DNA from: Octopus vulgaris
Taxonomy: Eukaryota
Assembly (NCBI GenBank): GCA_951406725.2
Contig: OX597816.1
Location: 134,292,001 to 134,356,000 of the forward strand
DNA length: 64,000 bases
Direction: 5' to 3'
This document shows positions 1-54,659 of this stretch, piece by piece (the first letter of the stretch is position 1; each line of letters starts with the position of its first letter). The notes under the pieces were generated by a model that worked only from the letters and a program-made list of their open reading frames with translations, had not been told where the DNA came from and did no database searches. The position numbers and the translations under genes are program-made.

Positions 1-217
1 TCTACAATATAGGATTTCTTCAATTACAATTTACCTGGCATTTTTAAGAGTACAATGCATCGCGTCATGCCAGGTCCAGTTTTTAAAATTTAAACTCCAA
101 TTAAGCAAAATTTACAGAAAACTCACATTCTGGTGTGTGTGTCAAATGCTTTTCTTAGTCTGGTTTACACCACATGCAAACGCACACACACAGTGGGCAA
201 CGAATAAAATGAAACTA
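1..217 (+). repeat. Dispersed repeat copy, near-identical inverted partner of 9362..9578
   Basis: 1..217 is the reverse complement of ~9362..9578 with few differences. Confidence 0.85.
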
Positions 218-460
218 ATTCACTTACTGTAGTGAGTGATTCTTTCACTCTGCCTCCCACTTCCTCTTTCCACACATACACACGCAAATATATAAATAAA
301 ATTGTAAGCTAACGTGCGTGTGTGTGAGTGTGTGTGTGTGTGTGCGCGTGTGTGTGAGTGTGACGGTGCGTGTGTGTGTGTGTGTGTGTGCGTGTGCGTG
401 AGTGTGTGACAGGAAAGTTTTTTTAGACGAATATAAGACCTATATCCAAGTAGCAGAAAG

Positions 461-647
461 ATAAGACAGTAAGGTGTGATTTGAGGGAGATTTGGCTGCT
501 ATTTCTACCATGTCTAGCTGCCATGTAGGGGGTCTCCCTCATAGGCTCATACATACATATATACATAGATAAGACAGTAAGGTGTGATTTGGGGGAAATT
601 TTGCTGCTATTTCTACCAGGTCTAGCTACCATGTAGAGGTCCCCCTC
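461..647 (-). repeat. Two tandem 5' heads of a SINE-like repeat with a structured (HDV-like) end
   Basis: ataagacagtaaggtgtgatt...tttggctgctatttctacc...catgtag...ccctc occurs twice; related copies at ~24470, ~35830 and ~56200. Confidence 0.7.
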
Positions 648-943
648 AATTCTTTTATTCTTCTGCTTTTTCCAGCCATTGCTCTGTGGCCATGCTGGGG
701 CAATGCCTTGAAGAATTGTAGTTTAATGAATCAACTCCAGTTTTATTTTTGTAAGCATTGTACTTATTCTATCTGTTTCCTTTGTCAAACCACTAGGTGA
801 CAGGGATGTAAACAAACCAACATTCGTTGTCAAGCAGTGGTGGAGGACAATCACAAGCACAGACACGCACACACACACACATACATGCATACACATATAC
901 ACACATACATACATACATATATATATATGTGTGTATATATATA

Positions 944-1266
944 TTGCAGCGTGGAAGGTGTTTGTAAGCCATTTAAGAAACACACAAAAACCGTTACATT
1001 CACTTCAACATTTAAATTTAATTTGCCAAAATATTTTCGTCGCTTTGAGACCGCGACCTGTTCACTGACAAAAATATCGTGCTAACAGGTCGCGGTCTCA
1101 AAGCGACGAAAATATTTTGACAAATTAAATTTAAATGTTGAAGTGAATCTAACGGTTTTTGTGTGTTTCTTAAATGGCTTATAAACACCTTCAACGCTGC
1201 AACTGTTTTCGTTCCAGCACACGATCTCAGATCAAGTCACTTGCTATGCAAGTACATCTCTGTAAC
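944..1266. mobile_element. Fold-back element (119-bp arms 944..1062 / 1084..1202), Penelope-like pLTR-type, carrying a hammerhead-like motif
   Basis: Arms pair with 4 mismatches around a 21-nt loop; unique 3' extension; flanked by (TA)n. Confidence 0.7.
1022..1072 (-). ncRNA. Candidate minimal type-I hammerhead ribozyme, G3:C8 core variant
   Basis: UUUGUCA-GUGAACA-G-GUCGC(GGUCUCAAA)GCGAC-GAA-AAUAUU-U-UGGCAAA. Confidence 0.55.
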
Positions 1267-1364
1267 TATATATATATTTATATATATATATATATGTATA
1301 TTGGTAAAAACAGTAAGATAACAAAAGAAAGAAAGAGACCTCAATATTATGTAAATAGAGGAAA

Positions 1365-1759
1365 TCTTTATATATAAAAGTGAGGTTGTGTGTCTGTCTC
1401 CTACGATTTAGATTCCTAACTACTCCCACATTTTGCGGTGCAGTTTAACCAAAACCGGGTATCTTATAGTTGTGATTCATATCGAGACCGTCTGGGTATT
1501 AGCGCGCGTCTACGATGAGTCTACGATTTAAAAAAAAATTTACCATCAATTTTTCCCATTTTTAATCCATTTTTGACATATATAAGGGAAGTAACTCTCT
1601 AAAATTTATTATTAAATCTCAGAACGTAAAAAGCTACAGTAACACCCCTCCCCCTTTGTGGTTAGCCATATTGAGATGGCTATTATACTTTACATCTCTA
1701 AAAATTCTTATATAATTATTTCCCTTACAAACCCGAGCAACGCCGGGCGATACTGCTAG
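1365..1759 (+). mobile_element. Complete non-autonomous Helitron
   Basis: A|TC 5' end, subterminal hairpin CCCG-AGCAACGC-CGGG (1732..1747), CTAG|T 3' end, no TSD. Confidence 0.85.
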
Positions 1760-2928
1760 TCCATTGATAAGATTGCAAAAGCAATAAAAAGTTTAGAAGA
1801 AAAGATATAAATAATAAATGAGTGTAAATCGAATTGGTGAGTGTGTTAGATAATTAATAATGCATTAAGACGGTATGATTCTCATCAGACACAACAAAAT
1901 TTGCTTCAACACATGAATTCACATAAAGAATATTGCAACCAGATACAAAAACAAAGTATATATATATATATATATACAGAGTGGGGAAGCAAAACATGGA
2001 AAATAATAGATAATTCACCAAATTGTTTATTTTACAACCAGCAACCTGACATAAATATACTTTTAACACATATTTATAGAGGTGTAGTGGGAAAGGTGTA
2101 GCAAAAAATGCTGAGGTAGCAGATGAAATAGGCATCAAATGGACGACATCAAAGCATTGGATTGTCATTTAAATAATTTATTTAATTGATGCTTGCATTT
2201 ACTTGCTGTATGCAACAAAAAATTCACTACATGACATTATCAACTTGCTTTTAGTTGGTGAAGAAGAAAATAAACAGGGGAAATACCATGTTGATGTGAT
2301 GAGGTAGAACCGGACATGATTTGTGTCTGTGTGTGCATTGGTCATGCGGTGGTGTCTGTTTATGTTCTGTGACTGCTACTGTGTTGGGCCATTCATGCTG
2401 AATATGTGGTTCTATGTTGGCTGCTTGACTGGCGCAAGTTACTTGCTGGCTGTCTCTTGACAGTTTGCCTGGTGATGGCTATCTCCAGTCCATTGATGGA
2501 TTGCTGTATTCATAATGGTCATGACAGCTAGAACAGACATACCACAGGAGTAATGTCTACTTATGTAGGTCACCTCTTGTCCACTTAAACCTTAAATGAC
2601 ACGGCTCAGGTATAAGTCGAAGGGAAATCCATCCATCACTTTTTGACAGGATAAAGAAATTTCTTTCATGCCTGTTGGGTCAGTGGTAGATCAGATGAGT
2701 GAGCATCCTTAGATTCGGTTTTGAATCTCAGCTCGGAAAAAGGAAGTGTTAGTTTTCACACTACCCACTGATAGAATAAGTACTAGGCTTACAAAGAATA
2801 AATCCCATGGTCAATTCGTTTGACCAATGGTGCTGTTCCAGCATGGCTGCAGTCACATGACTGAAACAAGTAAAACGATAAACAAACTATGCCATTTTAA
2901 TCCCAAGCAAGGCCAGGTATCTCTGCCA

Positions 2929-3665: not shown

Positions 3666-4455
3666 TTTATATTGTGTCTAATTGCCTTACATTTGTTACT
3701 TAGCTTCATGCTGAAAATGCATTATCACTAGTATATATGTATGTACATGTGTATGTATATATACACTCTTACACACACATACACACACACACTCACACAC
3801 ATACACTTGCACAAACACATATGATATATAGTGATCATTAAAGTTCTTCATCTGGTGCTTGTACAGTCATTACACTTTCCTAAAGTTAAGTTTCCTCTGA
3901 TAATTAATTCGGTGAACTCTGTGATCATGGCAAATGAAAGAAATCGTAAGTGATAATAATGTGTGGGTGGGGGATGGAGGGGGGGCTTAATATGTCTAAA
4001 CTGAAAAGAAAATCACCAGATTACAAATGGGAAAGAGGATAAATTTTTGTAACTAAGATCCAGTTGAAGACTTCTTTGTATAAATTTGGTTTAACAGTTG
4101 TAATAATTGTAGTGGTAGTAGTGGTGGTAATGATTGTGTAGTAACTATTTTAATAGAATTTGTATTCATTTAAGGCAGCGAGCTGGCAGAAACGCTTAGT
4201 GGTATTCCATCTGCCGTTCTGTCTGAGTTCAAATTCCACCGAGGTTGACTTTGCCTTTCATCCTTTCGGGGTCGATAAAATTAAGTACCAGTTATGCACT
4301 GGGGTCAATGTAATCGACTTAATCTCTTTGTCTGTCCTTGTTTGTTCCTTCTATGTTTAGCCCCTTGTGGGCAGTAAAGAAATAAGAATTTGTATTGATT
4401 GAATTCTGTATAAAGAATTGTTTAATTTGTATCATACATTTGCTGTTATTTTCAG

Positions 4456-5235: not shown

Positions 5236-5970
5236 TCATCATCATCATTTAGCGTCCGCTTTCCATGCTAGCATGGATTGGACGGTTCAACTGGGGTCTG
5301 TGAAGCCAGAAGGCTGCATCAGGCTCAGTCTGATCTGGCAGTGTTTCTACGGCTGGATGCCTTTCCTAACGCCAACCACTCCGTGAGTGTAGTGGGTGCT
5401 TTTTACGTGCCACCCGCACAGGTGCCAGACGGAGCTGGCAAACGGCCACGGACGGATGGTGTATTTTACATGCTACCAGCACGGGGGCCAGGTGAGGCTG
5501 GCAACGGCCACGAATGGATGGTGCTTTTACGTGCCACCAGCACGAGGGCCAGGCGAGGCTGGCAACGGCCATGAACGGATGGTGCTACATGCCACCGGCA
5601 CGGGGGCCAGGCGGGGCGGCGCTGGCAACGGCCACGATTGGATGGTTCGCTTACTTGTCACCGGCACTGGTACCACAGCTGTATTTTCCATTGATGTTGA
5701 TCGACTTCGATTTTGGTTCTGCTTTCTGATATCGGATTTGATTTGATTTGATTTTGATTTTGATTTTGATTTTCACTTGCCTCAACGGGTCTTCACAAGT
5801 GGAGTTTTGTGTCCCAAGAAGTTAAGGTATGTAGGCCACAGGTTATGTTCTCACTAGTCTTGCCGGGTCTTCTCACGCACAGCATACTTCCATAGGTCTC
5901 GGTCTCTAGTCATTTCCTTGGTGAGACCTAAAGTTCGAAGGTCGTGCTTCACCACCTCGTCCCAGGTTTT
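5233..5970 (-). mobile_element. 3' fragment of RTE LINE with ~61-bp unit array in 3' UTR and (GAT)n tail
   Basis: Reverse complement of the 3' end of the 11.2-13.8 kb LINE (KTWDEVVKHDLR region, tail). Confidence 0.85.
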
Positions 5971-6368: not shown

Positions 6369-7608
6369 CAGAGACATGCAGAAAGTAAATAGACACCTTT
6401 AATTTAATACGCAAAGCAAACAATTGAAATATAATCGATAGGTAGGTCGACATACTTTAGTATTTAGTTGACATTCCCTGTGCAGTTTTTAATTCAGAAA
6501 CTCTTTTTGGTATTGAACTGATGAGCTTTGTGATTGTCTCTTGTGGAATTTCTGCCCACTTTTCACGCAACAATCGAAACAATTCATCTTTAGATTTAGG
6601 TTTCTGCCGAGTTTTCCATATAGCTCGGTCCAGTATGCTCCAAAGATTTTCAATTGGGATCATGTCAGGAGATTGGCTTGGCCAATGAAGCTTTCTGATC
6701 CCATTTTCAGTCAGCCATTGTTGATTCCTTTCCGCTATGTGGCATAGAACCTCATCTTCCATGAATAAAAACTCATTTTTCATTATGTTGTCGTGTGAAT
6801 ACATCGGAAGTAGTCTTTGCTTAAGTATTTCGATGTATTTTTCAAAGTTTATGGTTCCAACACATTCGATCAGCTCAGAACGACCATTGCAGGTGACAGC
6901 TCCCCATCCCCATACCATTACATTGGTTGGAGTCGTTTCAAATCAAATTCTTGATTGGGAAGCCTCCAGACCCAAACACATCCACTGTCTGAAAATAATG
7001 CAAATCTGGATTCATCTGAGAAAATCACTCTATCCCAAAACGAACTGGATTTTTTTGACATCTTCTTAGCCCATTTCTTTCTTTTCATGATATTAATTGG
7101 TTGAAGGAGAGGTTTTCTTCTAGCTGATCGTCCATAATGCTCAAGCTTATGCAGATATATAACACATGTTCTTGGACTAACTTCTAGCTGTTTTGCAATA
7201 TCAGAAGCCTTCAAACAGGGTTCATTTTTCACAATTCTCTTCAAACAGCGAAGCTTCCTTTCCGAGGGCCCAGGTCGGCCAGGACGAGAATCTGTTAATT
7301 CTTTTCATTGGCTTTTGAATTGCACTATAATTCTATTAACAGTAGCAAGAGGAATTTGAAGATTTTTGGCAATTTTTTGCTGGCTAAGACCAGCCTCAGA
7401 TTGCCCAACAATACGGCCTCTTTGAAAATCTGACTGTTCTGCTGAATTTTTTGTGCATGGTATGGTTACTCCTCGCAAATGTTTAATATAATGGCACCTG
7501 GAATGAAAAAGAATAATTACATTGTAAATTCTACACCGCTGAAAACATATTAAGTCGCTTAGATCAGAAATTTTGAAAATTAAAGATGTCTATTTACTTC
7601 CTGAATGA

Positions 7609-8379: not shown

Positions 8380-8772
8380 TGCATGCAATTAGACTCGGAA
8401 AGTTCGTGAGGAACCCATTGACCCAATTTGCTGACTTTTCCGATAGCACACAGGTCTCAATGAATGGTTGAATGACCAAATCCAAGCTTCTCTGCTAGTT
8501 CCTCAACAGTTACGATGAGATTTTGTTCCACCAGGGTTTTCAGGATGTCCTTGTCGAGTTCTACAGATCTTTCAGGATGAGGCTCGTCTTCTAGGCTGTT
8601 CCAATATAGCTTTGAAAAAAATAGCTGTTAAAATCGAAATGCACTCTTCAAAACTTGCACTATGAATAAGGACAAGATAAAATTACTACCTGCTTTTATA
8701 GCAAGTTAATATAAGTAGTTTATCCCATTCCCCTCTGACTTTTAGTTCAAGCTGTTGAAAAAACCGCATTAT
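8380..8772 (-). mobile_element. Mariner-like remnant (5' end plus transposase N-terminal fragment)
   Basis: Decayed frame with LEDEP..P and VEQNLI.TVEELAEKLG-like HTH segment. Confidence 0.55.
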
Positions 8773-9361: not shown

Positions 9362-9626
9362 TAGTTTCACTTTATTCGTTGCCCACTGTGTGTGTGCGTT
9401 TGCGTGTGGTGTAAACCAGACTAAGAAAAGCATTTGACACACACACCAGAATGTGAGTTTTCTGTAAATTTTGCTTAATTGGAGTTTAAATTTTAAAAAC
9501 TGGACCTGGCATGACGCGATGCATTGTACTCTTAAAAATGCCAGGTAAATTGTAATTGAAGAAATCCTATATTGTAGATTTGTATAACTCCCAAAGGGAG
9601 GCAGATAAAATCTGCCTTTTATAATA

Positions 9627-11050: not shown

Positions 11051-11836
11051 ATATATACAGCAATCTCTTGCCATATCGCAGTTCATCTATCGACCACTCA
11101 GAACATCATAGTTCATCTATCTTGCACTCAGTACATTGCGAGTTTCTGCGACCGATTGGTATTTATATTTTTTAGATTTTAATCATTTCTGTGGGAGGCT
11201 TTGGAATGTAACATGTAACACCTGTGATAGTTGAGGAATTACTGTATATACTCATCAAGAAATTTGATGAGAGGGAAGAGGAGCTTCAGACGTCAGACAT
11301 AGAAGGTAGCTGGGAATTCCTACGGGACAGCCTGTTGAGTGCCACAGACCAAGTTTGTGGATGGTGCAAAGTCCCTTCCAGACCTAGAATTACGTGGTGG
11401 TGGAATAGTGCAGTAGATAAAGCCATCTGTGAAAAGAGACGGGCCTGGAAAGCCTGGAAGGATGGGGGCAGCAGGGAACTGTACCAGATAGCCAAAAGGG
11501 AGGCTGGGCGGCAGGTATACATTGCCAAAGATGTAGCAGAAAAGAAGAAGTTTGCCAATGTCCAGCGTCGCGAGGATCAAAGAGCTGAAGTATTTTGGAT
11601 TGCCAGACAGTGTGTCAGAGAAAATAGCGATGTTATAGGAGAGAAATGTGTCCGCATGGATGATGGGGCACTTGCTTTTACTACTAGTGAAAAGAAAGAG
11701 GCTTGGAGAAGCCATTATGAAAGACTGCTGAATGAGGAGAATGAATGGGAGGAGGAGAGCCTGCCAAATGTTGACCCAGTAGAGGGACCCAGCTACCCGA
11801 ATAGACAGCTCCCTTGTAGATAAGGCAATTAAGGAT

Positions 11837-13573
11837 ATGAAACCAGGCAAAGCCCCTGGCCTATCAGGAATCACTGCTGAGATGCTTAAAACAGCTGGCT
11901 ATGTGGGCCATGCCATAGTCACCCGCATTGTAAACCAGGTAGTTCACAATGGAGCCATACCCAATGACTGGTGCAGCAGTACCATAGTCAACTGCTACAA
12001 GGGTAAGGGTGATGCTCTAGATAGAAATAACTACAGAGGTATCAAACTGTTGGACCAGGTGATGAAGGTCTCAGAGAAGGTCATAACCAATCTCATTAGG
12101 GAGAGAATTTGTTTAGATGAAATGCAGTTCGGTTTTGTACCAGGTAGAAGCACCACTGATGCTATATTCCTGGTCCGACAACTGCAGGAGAAGTACCTAG
12201 CTAAAGATAAACCCCTCTACATAGCTTTTGTAGACTTGGAGAAAGCCTTTGACAGGGTTCCCCGTTCCCTTATCTGGTGGTCGATGCGGAAACTGGAGAT
12301 TGAAGAATGGCTAATAAGGGCTGTACAGGCTCTATACAGAGAGGCTGTCAGCAAGGTTAGGATTGGCAACGAATATAGTGAAGAATTCCGAGTAGAAGTA
12401 GGTGTGCACCAGGGCTCAGCCCTCAGTCCCCTTTTATTCATCATAGTCCTTCAGGCAATAACAGAGGAATTCAAAACGGGATGCCCCTGGGAGCTCCTCT
12501 ATGCCGATGACCTAGCTCTCATAGCAGAATCACTACCGGAACTAGAAGAGAAATTTCGGGTGTGGAAGCAAGGGTTGGAATCAAAGGGCCTTAGAATAAA
12601 TGTAGCAAAGACCAAAGTATTAGTAAGCAGCAAGAGGTACTCAGCACACATCCCCTCGGGTAGGTGGCCCTGCTCAACCTGTAGGAAAGGTACAGGTAGA
12701 AACTCCATAAGATGCACCCAATGTAAGTTATGGACACATAAGAGGTGCAGCAACATTAAAGGGAAATTAACAGATAAGATAGCTTTCATGTGCGGCAGAT
12801 GCACAGGGACAATAGACACAACAGACACTCAGAAAACAGATTCCATCACACTCCAGGGAGAGAAACTAGAAGTAGTTGATAGTTTCCGCTACCTGGGAGA
12901 CCAAGTTAGTAGCGGAGGTGGATGCACAGAGAGTATCACCACTAGAATACGAATAGCCTGGGCAAAGTTCAGAAAGCTCCTACCCCTACTGGCAACAAAA
13001 GGTCTCTCCCTCAGAGCAAAAGGTAGATTGTATGATGCATGTGTGCGAACTGCCATGCTTCACGGTAATGAAACATGGGCTGTGACTGCAGAAGACATGC
13101 GTAGACTTGAAAGAAATGAAGCTAGCATGATCCGCTGGATGTGTAGTGTCAGTGTGCACGCAAAACAGAGTGTAAGTATCCTGAGAGAAATGCTGGATAT
13201 AAGAAGCATCAGATGTGGTGTGCAAGAGCGACGCTTGCGATGGTATGGTCATGTGCTGCGGATGGATGAAGAGAGATGTGTGAAGAAGTGCCACTCCCAA
13301 ACAGTTGAAGGTATCAGGGGGAGAGGTAGACCCAGGAAGACATGGGATGAGGTGGTCAAGCATGACCTCAGAGCATTGGGCCTCACTGAGGCAATGGCGA
13401 AGGACCGAGATCTCTGGAGATATGCTGTGACTACAAAGACCCGGGCTGCTTTCTGCAGCAATTCCACATACCCCCTACCCATTCTAAGTACCCCGGATCC
13501 CCAAAGTACCCTGGATCCCCAAAGTACCCCGATCCCCAAAGTACCCCGGACCTCGTTGCCCCCGTGCCGCTGA
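11837..13573 (+). CDS. RTE LINE reverse transcriptase ORF with an internal PHD-like zinc finger
   Basis: KAPG, NYRGIKLL, QFGF.PGRSTTDAIF, FVDLEKAFD, GVHQGSALSPLLF, YADD, YLG. Confidence 0.92.
   Translation: MKPGKAPGLSGITAEMLKTAGYVGHAIVTRIVNQVVHNGAIPNDWCSSTIVNCYKGKGDALDRNNYRGIKLLDQVMKVSEKVITNLIRERICLDEMQFGFVPGRSTTDAIFLVRQLQEKYLAKDKPLYIAFVDLEKAFDRVPRSLIWWSMRKLEIEEWLIRAVQALYREAVSKVRIGNEYSEEFRVEVGVHQGSALSPLLFIIVLQAITEEFKTGCPWELLYADDLALIAESLPELEEKFRVWKQGLESKGLRINVAKTKVLVSSKRYSAHIPSGRWPCSTCRKGTGRNSIRCTQCKLWTHKRCSNIKGKLTDKIAFMCGRCTGTIDTTDTQKTDSITLQGEKLEVVDSFRYLGDQVSSGGGCTESITTRIRIAWAKFRKLLPLLATKGLSLRAKGRLYDACVRTAMLHGNETWAVTAEDMRRLERNEASMIRWMCSVSVHAKQSVSILREMLDIRSIRCGVQERRLRWYGHVLRMDEERCVKKCHSQTVEGIRGRGRPRKTWDEVVKHDLRALGLTEAMAKDRDLWRYAVTTKTRAAFCSNSTYPLPILSTPDPQSTLDPQSTPIPKVPRTSLPPCR
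13488..13550 (+). repeat. 18-bp minisatellite (gtaccccggatccccaaa) x~3.5 at the LINE ORF end / 3' UTR
   Basis: Direct reading. Confidence 0.85.
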
Positions 13574-43627: not shown

Positions 43628-44890
43628 TCATCATCATCATCATCATCATTTAGCATCCGCTTTCCATGCTAGCATGGGTTGGACGGGTCAACTGGGGTCT
43701 GTGAGGCTGGAAGGCTTCGTCAGGCCCAGTCAGATCTGGCAGTGTTTCTACGGCTGGATGCCCTTCCTAACGCCAACCACTCCGCGAGTGTAGTGGGTGT
43801 TTTTTACGTGCCACCTGCACAGGTGCCAGACAGAGCTGGCGAACGGCCACGAACGGACGGTGCTTTTACATGTCACCGGCACGGGGGCGAGCCGAGGCTG
43901 ACAACGAACACGAACGGATGGTGCTTTTACGTGCCACCGACACGGGGCCAGACAGAGCTGGCAAACGGCCACGAAACGGACGGTGCTTTTACGTGTCACC
44001 GGCACGGGGGCCAGCCGAGGCTGGCAACGGACGTGAACGGATGGTGCTTTTATGTGCCACTGACACGGTTGCCAGACAGAGCTGGCAAACGGCCACGAAC
44101 GGACGGTGCTTTTACGTGTCACCGGCACGGGGGCCAGCTGAGGCTGGCAACGGACACGAACGGATGGTGCTTTTACGTGCCACCGACACGGGGCCAGTCA
44201 GAGCTGGCAAACGGCCACGAACGGACGGTGCTTTTACGTGTCACCGGCACGGGGCCAGGTGAGGCTGGCAACGAACACGAACGGATGGTGCTTTTACGTG
44301 CCACCAACACAGGGGCCAGGCAGAGCTGGCAAACGGCCCGGCACGGGTGCCAGACAAGACTGACAGCGGACACGAACGGATGGGTCACTTAACCCCTGCT
44401 TTCTGATATATGATTTGATTTTGATTGTTCTCACTGGTCTTGCCGGGTCTTCTCACGCACAGCATACTTCCATAGGTCTCGGTCTCTGGTCATTTCCTTG
44501 GTGAGACCTAGAGTTCGAAGGTCGTGCTTCACCACCTCGACCCAGGTTTTCCTGGGTCTACCTCTTCCACAGGTCCCCTCAACTGCCAGGGTGTGGCACT
44601 TTTTCACACACCTATCTTCATCCATTCTCGCCACATGACCATACCAGCGCAATCATCTCTCTTGCACACAACATCTGATGCCTCTTAGGTCCAACTTTTC
44701 TCTCAAGGTACTTACTCTCTGTCAACTATGAACACTGACATTACACATCCAACGGAGCATACTAGCTTCATTTCTCGCGAGCTTACGCATGTCCTCAGCA
44801 GTCACGGCCCATGTTTCACTGCCATGTAGCATGGCTGTTCGTACACATGCATCATACAGTCTGCCTTTTACTCTAAGCGAGAGGCCTTTA
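43628..44890 (-). mobile_element. RTE LINE 3' fragment with a 9-unit alternating ~61-bp array in the 3' UTR
   Basis: RWYGHVARMDEDRCVKKC..RGRPRKTW; tail (GAT)n; array 43797..~44345. Confidence 0.9.
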
Positions 44891-52309: not shown

Positions 52310-54659
52310 GTAAGTCTTCACCAACATTGTGACACAAAACATTAATTGGTATATGTTGTTTAACAGTGAAATGACCTTTAATATACCTGTTAATTTTCTC
52401 CACCATTCTCGTACTTAAATTACCTCCTTTTTTTTTCCTACTTGATATTGGTTTCAAATTTTGGCATAAGGCCAGCATGTTCAAGGGAGGGAGTAAGTTG
52501 ATTACTACGACCCCGGTGTTCAACTGGTACTTCTTTTATCAACCCTGAAAGGATGAAAGGCAAAGTCAATCTTGGTGGAATTTGAACTTAGAACATAAAA
52601 ACAGACAAAATTCTGCTAAGCATTTTGCCTGCCATGCTAATGATTCTGCTAGCTCACCACCTTGAGGCAGGTAGAATATTGCTAGCATTAATGTTTGAAG
52701 AAATTTTGTTATTATTCTCTTTTTCATCCTTATTACTCGGCAACTAGTATGCGGTAGTATCAAAAACTTCCCAGACTTTAGGGTTACAGGGTAAGTTGGT
52801 TACATCGACCCCAGTACCTAACTGGTACTTATTTTATCAACCCTGAAAGAATGAAAGGCAAAGTTGATCTTAACAGAATTTGAACTCAGAACATATGTGG
52901 ATGAAATGCCACTAAGCATCTTGCCCAGTGTGCTAATGATTCTGCCAGTTCACTACCCTTTTCCATCTTAATATTGAAGTCAAATCATTCCTAGCATATT
53001 ACTGCCATTGGAGCACCTGCATATTTTTTATCACTCTTTCCCCACCTCTCTCTCTGTCATGGGCTTTTAGGCCCTTACCTGCCTGGTATAGACTTTAGCA
53101 TTGGTATATCTTCCATTCAAGTATTTGCTTGGGTTTTATATTTCTGGTGGTGCCCATACCCTCCCTAGGGTGTGGTGCTTCTGGCTCTCAAGAATCTCAT
53201 CCCCTTTTGGGAGGTTTTGTTTTTTAATTTTGCTGGATGCCTACACACCCTTCTCATGGGGCAAGTCCAGTAAGGCTTAGTTGCTGATTACTCAACCATG
53301 AGCATGTAATACTGGACTACATACTAGTAGTAGGCACCTCTAACAGTTTGTGATAGAATTGAAGTTTTAGTGTCAGACACCTGACAATAAAATTAAGGTC
53401 TGTGCTCACAATATCTAGATTTTGCAAGTGGTCATCCACCTAAATACTAACTAGGATTGCTATTACTTAACTTTGGCAATCAAATGAGAACTGACATTTC
53501 CAACATGATATAGATGTGAACAAAATTGATGAAATAATAAAGTATCAATATCATTATTTTTTTTTCTTGGTTTGGACTAGAGGGAAAAGGTGTGCCCCTC
53601 TAAAATCAGTGAGATTGCTGTCATTAGAATTACTCTTGAACAATTACTAGTTGATAACGATGAAAAAAAAACAAAAAAAAACGTGTAAAGTGAAGGAATT
53701 CTAGAACACTAAATGTTCTGGGAAGGAAGGAAGGACTAAACATAGTGGGTAGGTCAGGGTTGGTGGGGTGGGGGTCAACACAATATAGATGATGAGAAGG
53801 AGAGATGAGTAAGGGCTTGAATGGAGGTGGCACAAGACCAGCCAACTGCAGTAGAATTGGCAAAAAGAGAGAGAGAGGATGTGGCACATCTGTTGGCAAG
53901 AATTCAAAATGTATTTGTGAGTAGATTCATGCCAAAGATTGGCCTTTCTTTATATGCAGTCTTGGGATATCTGTGTTTGTAGTAGCAGCACTGTTCTAGA
54001 TGTCGTAGCAGTACTCCATTTTGGGTCCCACCTCAGAAGATTAGTAGCTATTGGAGGCTGAAGTATTTTCTGACTCTGAAGTGAAAAGCCAGTCTTTATG
54101 ATGCAATCTATCCTTTTTTAGATTGTGTAGTTATGCAAAATTATTGATGGTTACATTTCAGGATGACCAATTAGTGAATCATTAAAAGAAAGTTAACCAT
54201 TAAAAAAAGATGTTATAATAATTGTAGGTTAGGTTTTTCTAAGAAAATAGAAAATTCCAACACCTGTTTCAAAGATTAAACCACTTCTATTAACTTACAC
54301 ACTACCTCTACATCAGTTAACATGCTGCAAAAAGAAAAGAGTAATTATGGCTGAAGAGGAACTATATGAAAAAGATTTATTTCTGAATAATTTTGGTGAA
54401 AGAAAAGACAATATATATTCAACATGTTTGAACATGATTGAAGTACCCAAAAACAATAGTTAAAAAGCAAGAAATGTTTTAATCAAGTTAAATTTTATTA
54501 TAATTTTACAAAAATAATGAGTTATGAAAATAATGAAAACATTTGCTATTTTAACCTTTTTTAAAAATTATATTTAAAATTAAATTTCTTTTAACAAGAA
54601 CTGATTTTATTTCAAGCACAATAAAAAAAATTGAGTCAAAACTTAATTTCTTTTTTTAG

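Follow-up and report, generated by a model that had tools for sequence, protein, structure and literature searches.

A minimal hammerhead motif with a reversed 3-8 pair

A 64,000-nt stretch of the Octopus vulgaris genome (contig OX597816.1, positions 134,292,001 to 134,356,000; hereafter the window) carries on its minus strand, at 1022..1072, a minimal type I hammerhead motif in which the literal consensus bases C3 and G8 are replaced by G3 and C8. The motif is the hammerhead of the pseudo-long terminal repeats (pseudo-LTRs) of a family of Penelope-like retroelements (PLEs), designated here family A, and comparison with related elements makes it very probable that it is homologous to other hammerheads and has undergone a compensatory swap at positions 3 and 8. 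The preferred reading, to which we give a probability of about 0.65, is that the G3:C8 pair would keep the 3-8 tertiary interaction and that the RNA would be cut slowly after U17, and only as a dimer or with the aid of the element's protein.

Read along the minus strand, the motif consists of the stem I 5' strand (1066..1072), the core GUGAACA (1059..1065; G3-U4-G5-A6-A7-C8-A9), an extra G (1058) between position 9 and position 10.1, a 5-bp stem II beginning with G10.1-C11.1 (1057-1053/1043-1039), loop II (1052-1044), G12-A13-A14 (1038-1036), the palindromic stem III AAUAUU (1035-1030), U17 (1029) and the stem I 3' strand (1022..1028), the last with a subfamily A>G change (G in 10/90 copies) that leaves a U-G pair. 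By hammerhead numbering, the predicted cut lies between 1029 and 1028. Stem I is drawn from the sequence and RNAfold, stem II from RNAfold and the family alignment, the core from the sequence and that alignment, which also reveals that loop II varies between subfamilies. An extra base between 9 and 10.1, common to all six homologous motifs discussed below, is a described trait of minimal PLE hammerheads (PMC4209133). These elements had been placed here, on the same strand, in a prediction made from the letters alone (the original prediction), and the sequence agrees with it base for base. It had also pointed to a perfect UGACAAA in the partner arm of the surrounding inverted repeat; the string is present at 1118-1124 but on the opposite strand, and since that arm lacks G3-U4-G5 and the stem I 5' strand it cannot be a dimer partner.

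The minimum-energy fold of the 51-mer (RNAfold) consists of stems I and II, at -13.2 kcal/mol (z -2.1), and 7 of 200 shuffles fold as well, so that the fold signal is modest by itself. A strict minimal-hammerhead descriptor gave a single match in the 64-kb window, at 1022-1072, and none in 20 dinucleotide shuffles; a CUGAUGA heptamer at about 1880-1890 (minus strand) fails it. Rfam models gave no hammerhead match in the window, a miss that is uninformative on the swap because canonical C3:G8 minimal motifs were missed likewise, there being no hammerhead in the best 150 of 199 matches to eight loci that include such motifs. Rfam appears to miss the minimal-motif architecture generally.

The Penelope-like element family

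A pattern that requires exact stem III, stem II ends and core letters matches 5,153 genome sites (reversed-pattern controls, 0), and anchors placed outside the motif give 2,551 family copies. Widely spaced inverted pairs of the motif enclose an open reading frame (ORF) with a reverse transcriptase (RT) motif, a CX3CxxC linker and a GIY-YIG domain. In a full-length copy (L204), the motif at 4142 is followed by an ATG 56 nt 3' of the predicted cut, a frameshifted ORF and a second motif at 8403 (4.26 kb downstream), and an inverted copy lies at 353. Another copy (L148) retains a 1,025-aa open frame with RT and, at its C-terminus, a GIY-YIG domain. The endonuclease was identified by Pfam (PF01541, E 2.6e-5), and the RT part, for which Pfam gave no match, by its YVDD motif and homologs. 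Typical PLE features are a pseudo-LTR layout, an inverted truncated copy and a one-sided tail (PMC8557442), and family A has pseudo-LTRs, inverted 5'-truncated copies with varied junctions and a one-ended tail. The proposed link to PLEs, to be sought as nearby RT and GIY-YIG frames, is thus confirmed by the ORF and by the presence of the motif in both pseudo-LTRs. The CX3CxxC linker fits Neptune or Nematis, which have a CX2-5CxxC linker in common; the clade is read only tentatively from this linker, the RT tree being one without named reference elements.

Conservation within family A

Conservation was assessed in an alignment of 90 of 100 listed copies among the 2,551 chosen by flanking anchors. 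G3 is found in 87/90 copies and C8 in 83/90, so the expectation that other genome copies would conserve both bases holds. All remaining core positions (U4 G5 A6, A9, G12 A13 A14, A15.1-U16.1, H17) are kept in 87–90 of the 90, with U4, G5 and A14 invariant (90/90). Shared variants, taken as those in at least 8% of copies, were tallied without the ragged final column and without five columns attributed to CpG decay (four in stem II, one downstream). Such non-CpG variants occur in 5/9 loop II columns and 7/62 other unpaired or downstream columns, against 1/42 structured columns, where the lone change is an A>G that leaves a U-G wobble. The difference (1/42 vs 12/71) has a Fisher p of 0.03, a modest result because the columns are not independent.

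Two candidate features of the family were rejected. A C3:G8 subfamily inside family A was looked for among 100 listed of 273 position-3 mutants and was found in none (0/100), while two of the 100 have A3:U8. An apparently highly variable loop II was dropped, as a gap setting of 20-26 had left out the common 18-19 nt spacing and selected insertion variants.

Covariation at positions 3 and 8 in related elements

An RT search retrieved a sister family (family B, 56–58% identity) with a CX4CxxC linker and a 1,312-aa ORF between two pseudo-LTRs; this ORF is nearly identical to a database protein labelled Octopus vulgaris. The family B motif lies 101 nt before the homologous ORF start and has C3:G8. 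In both motifs of one locus (L173:1337 and 5925), C replaces A9, stem I comprises 3 bp and a bulge, and the stem III loop is non-palindromic. Double changes separate the two families at 3:8 and in stems I, II and III. The covariation of stems I and II that had been proposed as a check is therefore present as double changes relative to the sister family, while within family A it amounts to only one wobble change. Family B is represented by dozens of near-identical long ORFs, suggesting recent activity.

The strict descriptor misses family B, with its bulged 3-bp stem I, whereas a relaxed version in which positions 3, 8 and 9 are free (background 0.0013 matches per kb) detects it. From 50 metagenome loci, nine were scanned, the other 41 being weak matches, and in four of the nine the relaxed descriptor found one motif, always 3' of the endonuclease stop. 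Three of these (L208, L210 and L214) have C3:G8 and one (L209) has U3:A8. Positions 3 and 8, left unconstrained in the search, form a Watson-Crick pair in 6/6 homologous motifs (G-C once, C-G four times, U-A once), and 0/300 shuffles of each flank match under the strict descriptor. The extra G and G10.1-C11.1 are common to all six, five of which have U17. Core variants are seen at L208:4973, which has U15.1-A16.1, and at L209:2497, where U3:A8 occurs with C9. No motif was found in the 315-nt flank of L211, nor in L212, L215 and L216, which have little or no 3' flank. Unrelated motifs, belonging to other hammerhead families of the octopus genome, were noted in other loci, with canonical C3:G8 in L065 and L086/L158 (L158:4258) and with U3:A8 in L119 and L154 (L154:6164-6748).

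In the RT tree, family A is sister to family B with a Shimodaira-Hasegawa-like approximate likelihood ratio test (SH-aLRT) value of 100, and both lie within an 11-row group that also holds L208 and L210 (SH-aLRT 93). Because bearers of C3:G8 fall outside A + B, G3:C8 would most simply be a derived state, produced by one double change on the branch to family A. The claim that C3G and G8C are compensatory is upheld by this covariation across homologous hammerheads of related elements, and its broader interpretation as a variant hammerhead family is supported by conservation, by the cross-family covariation and by the PLE setting.

Predicted cleavage and alternative explanations

Pairing between positions 3 and 8 is established: natural U3:A8 hammerheads have been reported (PMC3088659; PMC4209133), and an engineered C3G/G8C change partly restores the hammerhead of a lizard PLE, which cuts only with the PLE protein (PMC11167929). 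Minimal PLE motifs are described as cutting weakly and only as multimers (PMC4209133; PMC6765202), and by analogy the same would be expected of the family A motif, which we judge to be probably still able to cut. In the mechanism envisaged, the swap would have arisen once, on the branch leading to family A, and stem III would be completed by the pairing of palindromes from two motifs, such as the two that a full-length transcript holds at a spacing of 4.26 kb. Cutting would be an infrequent event, so that the template of most new insertions would be RNA left uncut, probably with a cap, whose start lies about 58 nt upstream of the cut site.

The base at position 17 may have played a part. Hammerheads with G3-C8 are stated to be more active with G17 than with C17, given as data not shown (PMC3884650), which suggests that G3 mispairs with C17 and that the U17 of this lineage eased the swap. 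A more elaborate version, which we put forward as tentative and rather doubtful as a whole, is that family A has an active natural G3:C8 hammerhead, its reversed 3-8 pair enabled by an earlier C17 to U17 change that removed an inhibitory G3-C17 pair. It would represent a hidden class of PLE ribozymes missed by CUGANGA and UUGANAA searches, and would act as a slow switch on a capped RNA whose copying normally takes place without a cut.

A number of observations weigh against cleavage or weaken the comparative case. The cleavage triplet is UUU. The palindrome extends to 10 nt and can over-extend stem III, so that in a dimer U17/U1.1 might be paired with A13/A14 and the core obstructed (calculated, -3.8 vs -0.2 kcal/mol); the minimum-energy structure of the cofolded dimer is predicted to differ from the active fold, in a model that leaves out tertiary contacts. 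Positions 3 and 8 do not covary within family A, and in a related PLE (42%; L213:1691-2574) no hammerhead was detected in 883 nt of 3' flank. The RT tree came from a quick IQ-TREE search with SH-aLRT as its only support measure.

Lastly, genomic insertions would be expected to begin at the cut site if cut RNA were their template, and no such footprint was found in a sample of 89 distinct copies, taken from the first 90 among 5,471 matches to a 3' anchor. At most two of the 89 have their start no more than 3 nt from the cut site (an internal deletion and a case left ambiguous by a T-rich flank), against 40 with a start 50-62 nt upstream, at about -58. In the element itself the base preceding this -58 site is C or T (30/30), yet a G stands at 34/58 junctions when all own-genome loci are taken (8/19 if only the 3'-anchored set is counted). 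In L1 and SVA, untemplated 5' G residues have been attributed to cap copying (PMC3287187). This concentration of insertion ends at -58, with an untemplated G at many of them, makes an uncut, capped RNA the likely usual template and the site itself (L204:~4120 and family copies) a likely capped start within the pseudo-LTR; a resemblance to a 3' splice site, pyrimidine tract included, is also seen there. Similarly, for the lizard PLE, it was mainly uncut RNA that served as substrate, insertion in vitro could proceed without cleavage, and RNA-seq gave no reads with an end at the cut site (PMC11167929). The pattern of insertion ends is as compatible with a silent ribozyme as with a slow, gated one.

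The alternative that survives best, although we consider it unlikely, is that the motif descends from a genuine hammerhead but has lost the ability to cut, its fold being kept in the RNA 5' leader for protein binding, translation or priming. The lack of a cut-RNA footprint, the untemplated G, the UUU triplet, the over-long palindrome and the lizard PLE results just cited all suit this explanation, as does the tolerance of other core changes in relatives (C9 in two, U15.1-A16.1 in one), but against it, the features that catalysis requires, namely the 3-8 pair and unpaired core letters, are kept while the stems turn over between families, and a PLE hammerhead that does cut has likewise been reported without a footprint.

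Much less probable is a decayed hammerhead in which 3 and 8 changed independently, became complementary by luck and hitch-hiked with a successful family. By our own reasoning, two changes would leave a complementary pair about one time in three; only one G3:C8 origin is sampled, and copies do decay without compensation. Such decay is difficult to reconcile with an RT branch of 0.35 changes per site over which all other core positions are still canonical, with the presence of the same core in copies whose RT is 72–80% identical, or with subfamily changes that avoid structured columns. Efficient cutting of the monomer, made possible by contacts between loops I and II or by a stem III of 2 bp, is more improbable again: while stem I has 7 bp vs the 4-5 bp described for minimal PLE motifs, those motifs are reported to be without monomer activity (PMC4209133), and a fast cut would part the 5' leader from the ORF start, yet site-spanning copies dominate. 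The reading of the window's 119-nt-arm inverted repeat, with no ORF nearby, as a miniature inverted-repeat transposable element or fold-back DNA element that contains a hammerhead-like string by chance is refuted by the full-length PLE copy, and its remaining probability is negligible. The arms correspond to the 3' end of an RT-GIY-YIG element, and PLEs typically leave inverted copies that are 5'-truncated and vary in their junctions (PMC8557442).

The window copy and its Helitron-like carrier

In the window, the motif sits in an inverted repeat (944-1062/1084-1202) with arms of 119 nt that are 97% alike. The minus-strand part (944..1080) is a 5'-truncated PLE pseudo-LTR copy with a short 3' end beside (TA)n and an ORF start codon at 972, the sequence 3' of the motif being the PLE ORF start. 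Its inverted partner (1084..1265, plus strand) is cut off inside the core, beginning at A6; its ORF start lies at 1174, and it is the copy that bears the longer 'tail' end. No ORF was found near the inverted repeat. In the 2.8-Gb genome, 40 identical copies were scored, and the 30 retrieved have common flanks from about -53 to 1760; the idea that the 40 are independent insertions was rejected, as they have in common a 1.8 kb Helitron-like flank. The window's exact junction is present at 659 genome sites.

Helitrons have a 5' TC end and a 3' hairpin followed by CTAG, and insert between A and T. The element that carries the PLE fragment as cargo (1..1759, plus strand, beginning about 54 nt before the window) has a 3' hairpin at 1732-1747 and CTAG at 1756-1759; CTAG is followed by T in 27/27 copies and TC is preceded by A in 25/29, the remaining 4/29 being head-to-tail junctions. 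By these end features it looks like a young, non-autonomous Helitron. The minus strand in its context folds as one long hairpin (-197.9 kcal/mol), predicted to bury the motif. Given the shared carrier flanks, this hairpin and the partner arm starting at A6, the window copy is a 5'-truncated insertion that was captured and multiplied by the Helitron-like element, and is probably inactive in place.

The carrier seems to hold a second 5'-end-like motif at 1365 (1365-1759), as would result from the upstream extension of a short element, and some carrier copies occur in head-to-tail tandems. Window 9362-9578 is a 99% inverted copy of 1-217 and probably represents the 5' part of a second carrier.

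Other features of the window

At 11783-13573 (plus strand) there is a 596-aa frame with an RVT_1 match (E 4.7e-30) and a weak PHD match below the cut-off, not linked to the hammerhead PLE. A DDE_3 transposase fragment (E 2.5e-9) lies at 6457-6942 (minus strand), and a degenerate 5S rRNA-like copy (54.6 bits, several broken pairs; a pseudogene or 5S-derived repeat) at 53403-53521 (minus strand). Tandem arrays with 61/123-bp periods, within a dispersed repeat family, occur at 5395-5675 and 43802-44338.

Relationship to known hammerheads and significance

Much of this system is already known, namely the ribozyme class, the PLE setting and the laboratory C3G/G8C double mutant. As described for the minimal hammerhead ribozymes of metazoan PLEs (Cervera and de la Pena 2014, PMC4209133), the family A motif is present in both pseudo-LTRs and has a type I topology, an extra base between 9 and 10.1, G10.1-C11.1, a palindromic stem III, thousands of solo copies and opposite-strand pairs. 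It differs from that description in having G3:C8 instead of C3:G8, U17, a 7-bp stem I and a 5-bp stem II, and in its low within-family sequence variability. The RT, CX2-5CxxC linker and GIY-YIG arrangement, the pseudo-LTRs, the inverted truncated copy, the one-ended tail and the microsatellite targets resemble those described for endonuclease-bearing (EN+) PLEs of the Neptune/Nematis type (PMC8557442).

A compensatory double change at 3-8 is also reported for natural U3:A8 hammerheads (the Schistosoma Cercyon PLE, PMC4209133; Perreault 2011, PMC3088659). The change to U3:A8 takes two transitions and keeps the pyrimidine-3/purine-8 order, whereas G3:C8 takes two transversions and reverses it. 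The same pair has been engineered as C3G/G8C, with partial rescue in laboratory mutants (PAc PLE hammerhead, PMC11167929; review, PMC8495972), but in a C3:G8 background, while in family A it is the natural state in more than 5,000 copies. In the literature text searched, G3-C8 and C3G/G8C appear as laboratory variants and mutants and no record of a natural G3:C8 hammerhead was found, a scope that stops short of figures, the supplements of Cervera 2014 and Perreault 2011, and Lunse 2017, the likeliest place.

If the reversed pair is what it appears to be, it would complete the natural covariation series at 3-8 (C-G, U-A and now G-C) within one retroelement lineage, and would show that searches by descriptor leave thousands of ribozyme copies per genome uncounted. 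Family A offers a ready test of whether U17 enabled the 3:8 swap. The genomic 5' ends also bear on the purpose of PLE hammerheads, since the insertions in this family likely derive from uncut RNA.
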